DNA from: Eledone cirrhosa
Lineage: Eukaryota
Length of the DNA stretch: 64,000 nt
NCBI GenBank assembly: GCA_964016885.1
Contig: OZ024740.1
Coordinates: 69,378,001 to 69,442,000 of the forward strand
Reading direction: 5' to 3'
How positions within the stretch are numbered: position 1 is the stretch's first letter; each line of letters starts with the position of its first letter. Below are positions 8,862 through 64,000 of the stretch, piece after piece. Position numbers and translations under genes: made by a program. The notes beneath the pieces were generated by a model. The model did not search any database, was not told the origin of the DNA, and worked only from the letters and a program-made list of their open reading frames with translations.

Positions 8862-9374
8862 AAGTGGAATAGAATGAAACGAAATTTCATTTCTCACTCT
8901 TAGTACGGCACTTACTTAAATGTAAGTATGTATGTATGTATACGTACATACATATATGTATACGGACGTGCAGTAGTATGTATATATATACATACGGCCG
9001 ACTGAACTCACTCGATATGCAAATTAGGCTGCTCAGCCGTTAATATGCATAAGGACAGTATATACTTTCAGACGTTCAACCATCTGGCAGGAAGGTATAC
9101 GATGCTGACGATAGCTAGTAAGCTTGAAACTAGTACATCGTTCCTGTGTAAGTGTTGAACAAAAAGGTGAAGTGGTTGCCTAAACACTGTACGGCGTAAT
9201 TCGGGCTGTTTATTTGTTTACAAACAAACAAACCGAGCATTATAATAAATGTTCGGTAAACCGATACGTGCATATATATATATATATGTGTGCATGTATG
9301 TATATATATAAATACTACTGTACGTCTGTATACATATATGTATGAACGTATACATACATACATACTTACATTTA
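8862..9374 (+). mobile_element. Retrozyme-like non-coding HHR element (family A) with 5' inverted segment
   Basis: 8995-9374 matches 50968-51315. 8862-8993 is the reverse complement of 50830-50950. Octamer at 9017-9024; HHR at 9099-9141. Confidence 0.85.
9099..9141 (+). ncRNA. Type I minimal hammerhead ribozyme
   Basis: ACGATG-CTGACGA-T-AGCT-AGTA-AGCT-T-GAAA-CTAG-TA-CATCGT; 6-bp stem I, GUA site. Confidence 0.88.
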
Positions 9375-12300
9375 TATATATATATATATATATATATATA
9401 TATATATGTATATATATATATATATATATATATATATATTAAACCATGACCACGCCGACAGAAATAACATTTCACCATTATCTATATATGTTTAATTAAC
9501 CAGATTTTTCTTCTCTAGCTACATAAATAAAATCCCATATAAGAAGTTGGTCTAACCGAAATACATACCTTCCCTATCTCTCTGAACTAAGATCACCCAG
9601 GCGATGATTTATTGACAAACAGTCTATGATTGTCCATAATTATATTAAAGTGACGCAAAATGTATTATTTAGATTATAAGTTAAACTAAGTAGTAACAGG
9701 AAACGTGCCATGATCATAAGTCTAACCCCACTGCTCTTTGTTTTATGGGTGAACGAGATCTTTAGTTAGGGAATAATACTGTCATTTGACTCACGTTAGT
9801 CTTACATATATGTGATACTGCTGCAGCTAGACAATGTATACCATAAACCTCAGAAACAAAACAATGGGAATCTAGATTATTGGTGAAAACTTACCAACAC
9901 GCTACATTTACTGAATGATCTACGCACTGTTTATACACTCCGCGTTCGGTTGAGTTGATATCATGAACGACCAGGCTACCTTACATCTTTAATTCATCGA
10001 TCAATATTTCGGTCACATTTAGTCTGCTATCCACCTCTTATTGTTCTACTTTTACTGTAACTTAAACCTATCACTTAAAATTCCCCGAGTCAGTCTTTCC
10101 AAAAGCTGCAGTTACTCGGAATTCTATCCCACCCACTTTGTTATTTTTTGCTAGTCTTCAATCAAGATGTTTAACCTACTATACAACTATTTTAAAGAAC
10201 AAAAATTGTAATTTTGTGTCAATATTGATTTCTAAGTTAGCCAAAATGTCAGATCAGCATCTTACTGGTATTTGCAGTATTCGCTCCCAAAGATTTGAAA
10301 GTAAAACATAATCTCGCATGTAAGGATTTGAAATCAGAATTCCAAAGACGCAACTAATTTGAACAGATTTGCCCGGAATCACACGGATTCTTCAAATTAA
10401 GCTCTTGTAAGATTGTTTTAATAGAATAAATCAATATAGTCTCGTGAGAGTTGTTTATCACCCCACATTGCTGTATTGACAGAATAGTTAATTGGGAATG
10501 AATAATTAATAAACATTCACGGGAAACTTAAAATTGATTTTCTAAATGAATATACTCTGTAACATTTTAAAGATTCCTGGTTTTTCAAAACTAACATTTT
10601 CATTTTCATTTTATGTGTTGAGCGAAACTGTCAGTCCTGTAGAATCCATTATTTTCTAGATATAAAGTATATAATATAAGTTGTCATATATCAAGCTAAT
10701 AATATTTATTTATTTGCAATTGTTAATCACGATTATTATAGAAGGTAAAATAAATTGGCGTCGCAGTATAGATTATATTCTCATAAACAAACCCATGGTC
10801 TAACTACGATGCTTTCATCATACTGATTTTATCTAGGCATAGGTACAATTTGCACGACGTTCAATGATAATGATATACAAGAGCTGGGTAACATGGTGGC
10901 ACTGGCTTGCGTGAAAATTTAAGTATATAATAATGTCTTTAAGAGAGATTATTGAAGCACTATTGGATGTGAAGTGTTAATGGATAGATGATCATAACTT
11001 AGAGATTCTAGTGAATATTACATTGCATTGGTACCTCATTGCCTTCTCTAACTTTAAAGAATGGATTGCTCTCGGAGATACTGAACTACTTGTGTAATTT
11101 AGACAATATGAGACTCTAGAGCGGTGAGTTGTTACCAGCGGGCAGTAATTGTTTTAAGTTAGGTAACTAGACGACTAGTGTGTAAAGTACTGCGGAGACT
11201 GGCATATAGAATGTTGTACCTATAACAGGATACAAACTATCAAACTTTCATTTAAACGTGTTCCAGAATAAAGTCATTTGCGCCCTCTTAGTGAGGACAA
11301 TTTCCTTTAAAACTTAAAGCCCAAATTTTCCTTTGACAAATTAATGAGTAACAGGTATGTTCTCCTCCATAAAATATATTCCATGTGACAATATGAAACA
11401 ATATTGTATACCACACAACGTAGAACTAGAGTATATATAGGCATAACATGCACACTTTATTATCTGTGGAGTTTACAAAAAGCCTATAAATTATATATCA
11501 CAACTTGGTTGCTGTAAATAGTTTAAAACTATTTGATAGTTATTATATATGAATGTGTATATATATATGTGTGTATGTGTGTGTGTTTATATATACGTAT
11601 ATGCCGTTGGGTGAATAATTCATTTGTTATATGAAGTGTTTTACATTAAAAATACATAAGCCTATTTACATAATTTATTCAATAAGAAAAACATCAGCTG
11701 CAATCATCTGACATATTGTATTCATTTTATAACTATAGACAGTTTCACGTTCAGGATTTGCTGCTGCTTTTTAAATATTGAATAAGCCAATCCCGTGGAG
11801 TGGAGGTGGTAATTTCTATGAAATAAACATCAAACAGGCATTTCTACAACGAAATATAAAAGATTCGACATTCGTGACCCTCTTATAATATTTACCACAC
11901 CAGAACATTTTTGGATTCTCCGCCCAGCTGGGAAATGGCATTTCTCTAAATAGATTTTGAAACGGAATGTTTTCCTTCACAGCAGGTTTTCTGATTCAGA
12001 ACTGGCAATAAAATTCAATTGCAATGCTACGCTTTACATTGAACATATTTTCTCATAAAACATAAAAGGGTAAAAAGGAAAAACCACCGGGTTACCATAT
12101 ACAAATAAAACAAACAAAACAAGCCAGATGAGATATTTAGCATCAATTAGTGGAATTATTATCTTTATTTTGATCTGGATGTTCAGCAAACATTAGAGGA
12201 CAATGCAGTGTATGCGCCAGCAGCGTATTAACATCGGATCATTGAACAAATTCTTCAAACGCGTATAATAGTGAAAGCGAAATAGAGAACTACGGAGTAT

Positions 12301-13299
12301 TGTGTCTTTAAGCTCCTCTGGCTTCATCAGGCAGTTACTACTAATAGAGTAATACTTTTCAGTCTATCTAATAGCTCTTCCCTCATATGTCGCAAAATCT
12401 AACACTTAATCAACTAATGTCTATTTTGTATTTTGTATTTTGGTGTAAATTTAACAAATTTGTAGAGTTCGTTTGACGTTTATGGTTCTCTCAAGAGGTT
12501 AGTAGTTTGAAAGAAATGAAATTACTTCAAACGATAATCAGAAGAAACTCTTTATATACAGAGCTCGCCTAAAGGATCATACATTCTATATTGCACTGAT
12601 GTTTACTGCCTTGGCTATATTGATTCATATTGCTGACGGAGAATAGAGTACTGAATACCGAATTAAAGTATAAATATTCAGTCTGGTGACCCTGTGATAA
12701 TAATACTCACAATTCAGCCGTAATAAAACGCATACCCACACACACACACACGCGCGCACACACACATATATATATATATATATATATATATATATATATA
12801 TATATATATATATATATATATATATATATATATATATATATATATACGATTTAAATTAGTTTGATTACCAATGGGTAGAACTTGTCATTTTGAATTATTT
12901 CAAACCAAACGTAAATGACATATTCCCCAATAGCCACTTTGAATAAGTTTTTGTGCACAACAAATCCAATGATTTGACAGTAATTTTGGCCTTAGGCTAT
13001 CCAAAACTCTCTAATGGGCTCAAAAGTAGCATTCGTGGATATCAGTGCCCTAGATAATAGTAGATGAATCACTACCTCCTTACGGACAACTGACGCTACA
13101 TACCAAGTCCGAACACATAAGAGCCGAACACCCACAATCATTGCCTCCATCTCTCTCGCCCTCCCCATCCCTCTCTATTATGAGAAAATGGGGTCCGACG
13201 TGGTGGCCGCCCCACATCTCCGGTGGAAAGAATGGATAAGGCGTTTAGTGGCATAATTTTGTTTTTCTTTCCGCTCAGTGGATAAAAATTAGCAGATCC

Positions 13300-13915
13300 G
13301 ATTAATGACATGTCGCTATCCTACTCTGTTGAATATCTTCGGTGGCTTGGAATCATCTACAAACATTATTATGTTGCCTTTCTTTATGAGGTTTATGATG
13401 TGATTGTTGTAAATAATGAAGTTAGGTCGGCCCAACACAGAGCTCTGTGGGACGCAACTAATGCCATTAGCTGAGCTTGACATTAAGCCGTCCATCACAA
13501 CACGCTGAACCTGTCATCAGGAAACACTCCACTGTAGCTTCCCACAGGCTCCAGTGTTGATTGGTCTCTTGAACAAGATACTGTGTTCAACCCTTTCGAA
13601 GGCCTTGCTAAAGACAAACTGCATATCAAAGGCTTTAGGATAGCATTAAAATGATGGAGAAGTTGTGTTAAGCAATTTCTGCCGTCGCAGAAACCATGGT
13701 GGTGGAATTCATGTAATCATTGCTTTCCAGGAAGTTGGGATGTGTTAGTTATTCGTGACATCACCAAACTTCAAATACCTTAATGATGTTAGATGTGAGT
13801 GAGATCAGAGGTAATTCACTGGGGGTGGGGGGACTTGTTTCCTATTTGAAAAGTATGATGAAAGAATGGGAGAAAAAATGTCCACGGATGTAGCCTGTGT
13901 CCAGCGAGGTTCTAG
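13300..13915 (-). mobile_element. Decayed CR1/L2-group LINE RT fragment
   Basis: Minus-strand remnants ISLTSNIIKVFE, FSKAFERVEH and CVPQSSVLGRPNFIIYNN...MFVDDSK. Confidence 0.7.
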
Positions 13916-13944
13916 AGGAGATGCCAAGAGATGTGGAGTTCAAG

Positions 13945-63407: not shown

Positions 63408-63492
63408 TACCTATCTACCGGCCTTTCTGGAGAATTGTAAAAGCACATATCGTTATATGCTTTTTCTATGAAAATTAGTAGTGGGCAGACTA

Positions 63493-63500
63493 ATTTGCAT
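63493..63500 (-). promoter_or_regulatory. Octamer (ATGCAAAT) conserved upstream of retrozyme HHRs
   Basis: Also at 63961, 9017, 50989, 19748 and 19814; the HHR-proximal copy is 88-100 nt upstream of the HHR core wherever both are seen; function inferred. Confidence 0.5.
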
Positions 63501-63830
63501 AGAGTGTGAGTACGCACCGGTTCAGCGGAGACGATAAAAACAAATAACGAAACGAAATTAAATTTCGTTTCGTTTGTAACTCACTTTTGTATGACTGACG
63601 CTTAAACAATTAAGTTAAAAATGTACATCTACATATGCATACTGAAATACTAGTGTGTATATGAATACACACACGTATACATATGTAGGTGTACCAAGTC
63701 TTTCACTGGTCGCTTTACAGTGAGCGGCCCAGCTATTCTGTATGTAAACACACAGACAAACCGGTTTTTAGAGTCATACTGGTTTTCGGGGGGAACACCT
63801 TCCCTCCATTCTCCAGAAAGCCAGACAAGG

Positions 63831-63875
63831 AATATTGGACTAGTTTCGTTGTTGTTACAACTCATCAGCAATATT
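63831..63875 (-). ncRNA. Type I minimal hammerhead ribozyme (unit 2)
   Basis: Identical to 63363-63407, 468 bp further along. Confidence 0.93.
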
Positions 63876-64000
63876 TACCTATCTACCGGCCTTTCTGGAG
63901 AATTGTAAAAGCACATATCGTTATATGCTTTTTCTATGAAAATTAGTAGTGGGCAGACTAATTTGCATAGAGTGTGAGTACGCACCGGTTCAGCGGAGAC

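Follow-up and report, generated by a model that had tools for sequence, protein, structure and literature searches.

Four loci in a 64,000-nt stretch of the Eledone cirrhosa genome (contig OZ024740.1; the window) were given the same order of elements in a first-pass annotation: an octamer, a palindrome, a hammerhead ribozyme (HHR) and a downstream hairpin. Two belong to a family A (A1 at 8862 and A2 at 50734), one to B and one to C. The question they raise is whether such divergent sequences are one family of retroelements and, if so, what the common elements do and what copies the units. Judged by sequence, the A, B and C loci are real copies of a superfamily of protein-free HHR repeats, the non-LTR retrozymes. 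The units are 432 (A), 468 (B) and 438 bp (C) long, with a GC content of 0.36-0.38, and occur in arrays of 2 to ~29 units. Each contains a type I hammerhead and a promoter-like block of putative function in a fixed anatomy read in the sequence, with no retroelement reading frame inside the units or at a fixed position beside them.

The four loci

8860-8995, minus strand: inverted 5' arm of A1, next to (TA)n; covers unit positions 151-277 and has the long end, with the tail hairpin at 8876-8893
8995-9363, plus strand: main arm of A1, from unit position 293 to ~220; its 3' end is the short one and lies in (TA)n
9016-9089, plus strand: A1 promoter-like block, function putative; U6-type 12-mer 9016-9027, TCAG 9033-9036, TATATA 9059-9064, predicted +1 9089
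9099-9141, plus strand: A1 type I hammerhead, predicted cleavage after 9135
9233-9256, plus strand: A1 downstream hairpin
50735-51326, plus strand: A2, a partial tandem (1.38 units) whose short 3' end lies in (TA)n; two hairpins, at 50764-50787 and 51197-51220, and a tail hairpin at 50919-50936
50988-51061, plus strand: A2 promoter-like block, function putative; 12-mer 50988-50999, TCAG 51005, TATATA 51031, predicted +1 51061
51071-51113, plus strand: A2 type I hammerhead, predicted cleavage after 51107
19599-19685, minus strand: C inverted 5' arm, the start of the C locus
19678-20046, plus strand: main arm of C, containing three octamer-like repeats of 33 bp (19746-19835); its 3' end lies in (TA)n
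19813-19884, plus strand: C promoter-like block; 12-mer 19813-19824, TATA palindrome 19849-19864, TCAG and start-site A mutated here
19894-19945, plus strand: C hammerhead with a mutated core, CGGATGA; likely inactive
20023-20046, plus strand: C downstream hairpin, homologous to that of A
63066-64000, minus strand: B array with two units of 468 bp inside the window; its long 3' end lies in (TA)n at 63066, and the array continues past the window
63896-63969, minus strand: B promoter-like block, unit 1; 12-mer, palindrome 63907-63932, predicted +1 63896
63831-63875, minus strand: B type I hammerhead, unit 1 (Rfam HH9, 41 bits, under the gathering score of 52)
63428-63501, minus strand: B promoter-like block, unit 2
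63363-63407, minus strand: B type I hammerhead, unit 2

The motif ATGCAAATTAG(G/T)CTG was found at all four loci (9017 and 50989 in A, 19814 in C, and 63968 and 63500 on the minus strand in B), together with palindromes and, in A and C, the downstream hairpins. To that extent the proposed common order stands, but the downstream hairpin quoted for it is not in B, which has a different hairpin at the homologous place. The tail hairpin said to be common to A and B is present in the sequence. Individual copies depart from what had been quoted for their family: GAAAGTATATACTTTC is exact at 50734 but reads GACAG at locus 8862, the stem ACGATG/CATCGT is exact at 8862 but has ACGGTG at 50734, and the hairpin CCGAGCATT/AATGTTCGG is exact at 9233-9256 and nowhere else. 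The first stretch of the locus at 8862 (8860-8995) is an inverted arm. In C the family HHR is intact in most other copies, but the window copy has CGGATGA for CTGATGA and a weakened stem III.

The B locus is a real HHR repeat, as annotated, but it lies on the minus strand and extends beyond 64000; it continues for ~1.8 kb as a head-to-head array of about 2.85 + 3 units, the second arm of which ends outside (TA)n. Contigs from four sequencing runs of unspecified kind cover B and have no bearing on expression. A ligation scar at the B cut site was considered and rejected: the base there is variable, but the T is characteristic of a subfamily, and the only units with G are two in the B locus of the window itself (the counts take in overlapping loci). 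Rfam miRNA matches in the window were microsatellite artefacts.

Relationship and abundance of the lineages

Two pattern searches gave 22,768 and 1,822 matches, with 0 and 1 in the controls. The superfamily has a unit size of 430-500 bp and comprises at least seven lineages and more than 24,000 pattern-intact units, which, taken with the covarying HHR stems described below, bears out the earlier proposal of an old, diversified and abundant family of non-autonomous ribozyme retroelements. An HMM built from other lineages only (F, H, I and J; 19 sequences, selected partly on the 12-mer and HHR core) matched exactly the five A, B and C units in the window, with E values of 1e-18 to 2e-7, and gave zero matches at the window's other HHR-like sites and zero in the reversed window. 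No significant match came from HMMs restricted to the spacer or to the downstream part. Outside the promoter-like block and HHR, homology is clear between A and B, weak between A and C and absent between B and C; intermediate lineages bridge the three.

The comparisons that follow use 77 A, B and C loci (13 of 90 were dropped as overlaps) and 25 representatives. The latter were obtained from 31 cluster representatives by excluding six that were chimeric, truncated or redundant and adding one E copy; as the lineages have common ancestry, counts across them are not independent.

Structure of the hammerhead RNA

RNAalifold applied to a MAFFT alignment recovered stem II only, because the helices misalign at 50% identity, and stem pairs were therefore counted from the core anchors. 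Over the 25 representatives, 128 of 150 positions were paired in stem I (85%, against a shuffled mean of 59%), 85 of 100 in stem II (57% shuffled) and 43 of 50 in stem III (58% shuffled). The observed pairing of each stem was reached by 0 of 2000 shuffles, and sliding the register by one position lowered pairing to 33%. The stem enclosing the HHR, which includes pairs 5' of the predicted +1, had z < -1.5 in 18 of the 25. Compensatory change in the HHR stems had been claimed from the window, and the paired counts and the enclosing stem bear it out; selection on RNA structure holds because these stems covary across lineages. When folded as circles, four of four units were 66-69% paired (z -8.5 to -10.2). 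The family A HHR has a U-U mismatch at the base of stem II, as described for the axolotl HHR_Amex2 (PMC7229834).

The further suggestion that all four common elements reflect RNA structure is not supported in that form, the octamer and palindrome being better read as a promoter and the palindrome giving no more than a modest hairpin signal.

The promoter-like block

The octamer and palindrome together likely form a promoter resembling those of the host snRNA genes. Two host U6 genes carry TATGCAAATTAG and TATGCAAATGAG at -77/-78, and variant forms occur at U6atac and at a third type of U6 gene. (The upstream element was in place in 3 of 18 non-redundant U6 loci, and displaced in two more, and in 1 of 12 non-redundant U6atac loci; the remainder were retrocopy-like and excluded.) TCAG(T/C) occurs at -55 to -58 in 13 of 16 host U1/U2/U5 promoters. 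In the repeats a TATA box forms the centre of the palindrome and has the spacing known from snRNA genes, YCAS is found at index 17 in 20 of the 25 representatives, and C^AG lies 29-31 nt 3' of TATA, also in 20 of 25; neither YCAS nor C^AG was part of the search pattern for lineages found by pattern. TCAG, TATA and the C^AG start follow the 12-mer at the spacing of host U1/U2/U5 promoters. The 12-mer was absent from 35 other HHR-like matches. It was also absent from all 16 host Pol II snRNA promoters, and in the repeats it stands 4-5 nt nearer the start than in U6; no host promoter examined therefore has the exact layout.

A U1/U2/U5 weight matrix scored 6.5 at the predicted site in A (second on the plus strand), 9.8 in C and 0.3 in B, and 6.8-25.3 on host genes in leave-one-out scoring; equally high scores are reached at other positions within the units. 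No snRNA 3' box was found in the units, the best score being 3.1 compared with 9.6-24.5 for host genes. The U2 gene L124 was excluded as a near-duplicate from the weight-matrix, 3'-box and TATA-hairpin comparisons. The promoter of newt satellite 2 reportedly contains an octamer.

The block might instead be a U6-type Pol III promoter, made up of the 12-mer and TATA. Transcription would then stop at the T run that follows the terminal hairpin, and new copies would retain the promoter through a degree of read-through or template jumping. The 12-mer is identical to the host U6 elements. Every unit has T runs of 5-7, which would suit Pol III; in A, B and C such runs coincide with the long 3' end or shortly precede it. 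Schistosome HHR repeats are described as using Pol III. We nevertheless regard this as unlikely. The 12-mer-to-TATA spacing is ~40-45 in the repeats compared with 46-48 in U6 genes, the conserved C^AG is at index 71-75 and not 77-79, TCAG is at the Pol II position, and B has an earlier T5 at position 217. In addition, the copies and the enclosing stem contain sequence upstream of the start, so that the template RNA must run through the T tract.

It is improbable that the block is an RNA-level signal only, ie a structure or protein site in the circle, with passive transcription from host or Penelope-like element (PLE) promoters, as the first-pass annotation implied. Whole units do fold far better than shuffles, and the TATA-centred hairpins are more stable than hairpins at the TATA boxes of host genes (mean z -1.35 vs +0.22, p = 0.001). 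However, just 10 of the 25 representatives have a TATA hairpin with z < -1.5, the register of this hairpin is shifted in lineage J, and the 12-mer, YCAS and CAG are conserved in sequence and spacing, do not covary, and match host promoter positions.

Insertion ends and a candidate helper

The insertions bear Penelope-type marks: partial tandems, an inverted 5' arm, a tail on one end and 5' truncation. Their 3' ends fall at two sites in 24 of 27 A, 20 of 20 B and 27 of 30 C loci. (TA)n adjoins 62 of the 77 loci, an inverted arm is present at 37, and 10 of 14 B pairs have one long and one short end; the tails are ~35-70 nt. The same two ends were found in a young Hydra PLE family (11 long and 11 short, 22 of 30 copies being readable). 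One of the members of that clade in the window, separate from the repeat units, is the candidate:

35654-37894, plus strand: candidate helper, a 746-aa stop-to-stop frame of a young Hydra-clade Penelope-like element

It has a DKT motif, a CxCX5C linker, a C-terminal GIY-YIG, an HHR and a (TA)n target, the clade being set by these motifs against the published description. The Pfam GIY-YIG match is weak on a sister copy (E 0.005) and absent on the 35654-37894 frame, and a PDB search with the helper gave no meaningful match.

In four insertions a retrozyme arm is joined head-to-head to a Hydra-clade PLE arm, which points to a Hydra-clade PLE as the likely helper. Flush head-to-head Hydra arms occur at three of nine retrozyme loci with a Hydra match, compared with none of seven matches to other retroelement proteins; looked at from the other side, one of 24 young Hydra copies (L279/L297) has a flush joint to a retrozyme arm. 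The copies bearing chimeras are an A, an A-like, an H and a D, with none seen in B or C, and the chimera L297 has two short ends. A further candidate, L283, was ruled out as a Hydra copy nested in the internal (TA)n of a D copy.

Whether the units are ordinary pLTRs of autonomous PLEs had been put forward as a check, and no sign of it was seen: none of the 77 loci is continuous with a same-orientation RT/GIY-YIG frame. That they are solo or amplified pLTRs of an unsampled autonomous PLE family is very improbable, since despite their PLE-type ends, flanks read for 1.5-3 kb only, and a precedent in Xenopus retrozyme families (24/57 matching known elements, 21/22 of those matched being PLEs; 10.64898/2026.07.22.740005), the 77 loci have no common flank or frame at a fixed position, similarity to the window's three Hydra PLEs, at the 3' end as elsewhere, does not go beyond low complexity, the 12-mer occurs in one of 30 young Hydra pLTR regions even with a mismatch allowed, and the PLEs that touch units are inverted and 5'-truncated, or nested.

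Within an insertion, units differ less than between insertions (A, 0-2 vs a mean of 13.6, based on just two pairs; B, 1-4 vs 4.1; D, 0-3 vs 1.2). A rolling-circle origin was not accepted on this ground, as a circle is not separable from local duplication. The 5' ends cluster weakly near the cut site in B (10 of 34, p = 0.015), and no such clustering was found in A or C. Among the closest copies there was no A>G editing bias (A>G per A and T>C per T were 0.0099 and 0.0078 in A, 0.0019 and 0.0011 in B, and 0.0124 and 0.0142 in C).

Proposed amplification cycle

Our preferred reading, to which we give a probability of roughly 0.7, is that A, B and C are lineages of one superfamily whose units combine a type I hammerhead with a promoter likely of snRNA type, and that they were likely copied into (TA)n by Hydra-clade PLEs. 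The promoter of unit n would start transcription 47-59 nt before the cut site. The polymerase would most likely be Pol II, given the U1/U2 geometry, the U6-type 12-mer serving as an extra upstream site. Read-through into unit n+1 is expected because there is no 3' box, and the two hammerheads would release a monomer carrying the next promoter, which may be ligated into a highly paired circle. A Hydra endonuclease/RT would then nick (TA)n and prime at one of two AU-rich sites, copying across the cut site by way of a circle, an uncut multimer or a template jump. Synthesis of the second arm would start at the opposite end of the break, giving the partial tandems and head-to-head pairs.

More tentatively, we suggest that a hybrid promoter (U6-type element, U1/U2 geometry, no 3' box) has been kept over at least seven lineages, making the units self-transcribing circular-RNA genes, and that Hydra-clade PLEs mobilise them in trans without common termini, the chimeras (a retrozyme arm with a Hydra arm, or with U6atac) reflecting a PLE inversion whose two arms come from separate priming events, for which different RNAs are possible.

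Comparison with known systems

The repeats resemble the metazoan non-LTR retrozymes (Cervera and de la Pena 2020, PMC7229834), which are described as tandem arrays of short non-coding units of low GC content that contain a type I HHR and are predicted to form a highly paired circle, and for which PLEs were proposed as helpers. Units of 430-500 bp are, however, at or above the 150-450 range given there, and target-site duplications are unreadable in (TA)n. Circular RNAs were demonstrated in that work, whereas the circles here are predicted; its accessible text gives no promoter, inverted arms or named helper clade. Newt satellite 2 (Coats, Zhang and Epstein 1994, as cited in PMC2220036 and PMC6765202) is described as a repeat that contains an HHR and is transcribed by Pol II from an internal promoter of snRNA type, an arrangement like that predicted here. 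As far as the citing descriptions go, the present layout is set apart by its spread over at least seven lineages, by an unrelated animal, and by U1/U2 spacing and a TATA box in combination with a U6-type 12-mer.

The repeats share (TA)n targeting, partial tandems, an inverted 5' copy, a tail on one end and an HHR with PLEs of the Hydra clade and with non-autonomous Chlamys elements, MRC1 among them, as described by Craig et al. (2021, 10.1101/2021.04.23.441226). In contrast to the PLEs, the repeats have no reading frame and have tails of ~35-70 nt, and while the Chlamys elements are reported to resemble their partners at the 3' end, the repeats have no similarity to the Hydra pLTRs examined. 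Vertebrate retrozymes (Li, Clavereau and Pollet 2026, 10.64898/2026.07.22.740005) are likewise non-autonomous HHR repeats dependent on PLEs, a dependence that we infer here. Their PLE link is described as co-occurrence and pLTR homology; ours is insertion anatomy and chimeras, pLTR homology not having been found.

The retrozyme class, PLE dependence and a snRNA promoter in one newt repeat are thus already in print, and the gain is therefore in testability and generality and not in a new kind of system. A literature search, with subscription papers, Repbase/Dfam and supplements outside its scope, found no paper on the Eledone family or on a snRNA-type promoter in invertebrate retrozymes. In published work the transcription of animal retrozymes and their mobilising element are proposed rather than shown. 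The Eledone cirrhosa genome offers a start site predicted to the base, three promoter elements open to mutation, and a young named candidate helper with open reading frames. The mixed-arm insertions bear on how Penelope-type inversions and tails are formed, listed as unresolved in 10.1101/2021.04.23.441226. Finally, the fusion of one C copy to a U6atac retrocopy means that the machinery may take any abundant RNA, which speaks against the preferred reading.

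Ribozyme units in the window

The repeat loci A, B and C, whose natural tandem units measure 432 bp, 468 bp and about 438 bp respectively, all carry a common 15-mer.

9017, plus strand: 15-mer (A)
50989, plus strand: 15-mer (A)
19814, plus strand: 15-mer (C)
63968, minus strand: 15-mer (B)
63500, minus strand: 15-mer (B)
8860-9363: A1, inverted arm (8860-8995), then main arm
50735-51326: A2, partial tandem of 1.38 units
19599-20046: C, inverted arm (19599-19685), then main arm
63066-64000: B, part of an array of about 2.85 minus and 3 plus units that extends past the window end

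Type I hammerhead ribozymes (HHRs) lie downstream of the 15-mer in A and B, but the core of the C copy is mutated (CGGATGA in place of CTGATGA). The four-locus description in the first-pass annotation was largely right, and its class, non-LTR retrozymes, is upheld; membership of A, B and C in that class is very probable. Several motifs it quoted for A are exact at just one of A's two loci. The cleavage position of the B minus arm is C. Directly past the window end (L091:2253-3188), two successive B units of the plus arm have G there, which should block cutting.

The upstream block

The first-pass annotation read all the shared elements as RNA structure. This holds for the HHR stems, but the block upstream of the HHR is more likely a promoter, a function to which we assign a probability of about 0.8. 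Host U6 genes (three gene types) have TATGC(A/T)AAT(T/G)AG at -77 to -79 and TATA at -30, and the best host U6atac locus has a one-letter variant of this 12-mer at -78. The 12-mer is absent from all 16 host U1, U2 and U5 genes. These genes have TATA near -30, and 13 of them have TCAG(T/C) at -55 to -58; the layout upstream of these genes (L107-L161) is AATTAA at about -89, TCAGT at -56 and TATA at -30. The host layouts, with a different 12-mer at -78 in U6 and U6atac, should help in the design of a U6 promoter for this animal.

Twenty of 25 representative repeats have YCAS at index 17, counted in nucleotides from the octamer, and 20 have C^AG 29-31 nt past TATA. The latter spacing predicts +1 at index 72-75, the position expected from U1/U2/U5 spacing and 47-59 nt ahead of the HHR cut site; U6 spacing would place it at 77-79. 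The host weight matrix scores the predicted site at 6.5 in A, 9.8 in C and 0.3 in B (host range 6.8-25.3), and rival sites within the units score equally well, which counts against a promoter. T runs in every unit suit Pol III and count against the U1/U2/U5-type reading. Pol II appears considerably the more probable polymerase. Scoring for a 3' box found none in the units. The 12-mer is missing from 35 other HHR-like matches. Newt satellite 2, as cited in PMC2220036 and PMC6765202, is a precedent for an HHR repeat with an snRNA-type promoter.

RNA structure

Compensatory change in the HHR stems, claimed earlier, was borne out. Counted from core anchors picked to favour pairing, and against shuffles that ignore the relatedness of the sequences, the 25 representatives had 128/150 stem I cells paired (59% shuffled, 33% slid), 85/100 in stem II (57% shuffled) and 43/50 in stem III (58% shuffled). 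When each lineage was represented by a single sequence, the counts were 41/42, 25/28 and 14/14. The enclosing stem, which includes bases upstream of the predicted start, has z < -1.5 in 18/25 representatives and gives -14.9 kcal/mol with its own partner versus -10.6 across lineages. The palindrome hairpin is weaker, with z below -1.5 in 10/25 representatives versus 1/18 host promoters. Circular folds of whole units give z of -8.5 to -10.2.

Insertion ends and a candidate helper

Among 77 non-overlapping A, B and C loci (the closest copies, each required to contain the query), the 3' ends of each family cluster at two sites (A 24/27, B 20/20, C 27/30) and 5' ends are scattered. (TA)n adjoins 62 loci and 37 have an inverted 5' arm; in 10 of 14 B pairs a long end is matched with a short one. 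In their ends, (TA)n and inverted arms the loci resemble the Penelope-like elements (PLEs) described by Craig et al. (10.1101/2021.04.23.441226). Three PLE copies with motifs of the Hydra clade lie in the window.

3119-5415, plus strand: Hydra-motif PLE
29259-31634, plus strand: Hydra-motif PLE
35654-37894, plus strand: Hydra-motif PLE

Two are broken; the third keeps an open frame of 746 aa and has inverted arms and a tail of about 110 nt. The RT of all three escapes Pfam. One of the copies is a member of a young family (150 scored matches, 92-100% identity) which shows the same two-end pattern in (TA)n as the retrozymes and has no pLTR (terminal repeat) related to the retrozyme unit.

It is likely, on the evidence of these ends and of chimeric insertions, that Hydra-clade PLEs moved the A, B and C elements, and we regard a helper role for Hydra as quite probable. 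At 3/9 retrozyme loci with a Hydra match, a truncated Hydra arm lies flush and inverted at the retrozyme 5' end (chance about 1e-4, a rough hand estimate), compared with 0/7 matches to other retroelement proteins. Of 24 young Hydra copies, one is paired with an opposite arm made of 2.4 D units, and its two outer ends both lie in (TA)n; at L179 (G000:C19:7531494, locus 1257-1620) a U6atac retrocopy stands head-to-head with an inverted C arm. Among the loci examined, no chimera was found for B, or between C and a PLE. L283 was rejected as a chimera, being a young Hydra PLE nested within a D unit, in its internal (TA)n. Five U6/U6atac copies without the upstream element (L105, L137, L138, L145, L177), with TA-rich or microsatellite 5' flanks, may be retrocopies that arose through the same machinery.

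The anatomy, covariation, spacing, ends and chimeras are established in the sequence. In the cycle we propose, snRNA-type transcription would initiate directly ahead of stem I and the polymerase would read through into the next unit; two HHRs would then release a monomer carrying the promoter, which would circularise, as retrozymes of coral, mussel and axolotl have been shown to do (PMC7229834), and a Hydra enzyme would prime at (TA)n on both sides of a break. Retrozymes, their proposed PLE dependence (10.64898/2026.07.22.740005; PMC7229834), non-autonomous PLEs (10.1101/2021.04.23.441226) and one snRNA-promoted HHR repeat are already known. Searches of a limited collection of papers, with repeat databases and supplements outside it, brought up nothing on this family, the putative hybrid promoter layout or mixed-arm insertions.

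Abundance and descent

The high abundance suggested earlier was confirmed in the 3.0-Gb host genome, with 22,768 matches to a tight pattern for A/B/C-type units (control 0) and 1,822 to its TGAG variant (control 1). When 140 distinct segments were clustered, they fell into lineages A/D/E, B, C, F, I, H and J, with about 50-65% identity between lineages. With promoter and HHR set aside, the alignment is colinear for A-B (z 18.4, or 8.4 once dinucleotide tracts are removed), weak for A-C (5.5; 1.3) and marginal for B-C (-0.1; 2.8). In lineage H an A-like promoter occurs together with an HHR and a downstream hairpin of C type. An HMM trained on F/H/I/J alone recovers exactly the window's five units; its spacer-only and downstream-only versions had no significant match. 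Common descent is therefore likely, the homology proposed in the first-pass annotation being firm for A and B and indirect for C.

About 29 B-type units form one array at G000:C1:5738350-5751968. Eight near-identical H units, spaced at 50-105 kb (G000:C1:143343558-143791156), were probably carried in a segmental duplication. Elsewhere in the window, hammerhead-like motifs without the 12-mer occur in other repeat families at 8477-8547 (plus), 2113-2183 (minus) and 33115-33176 (minus), and a broken LINE with RVT_1 and zf-RVT domains lies at 14811-17649 (plus).
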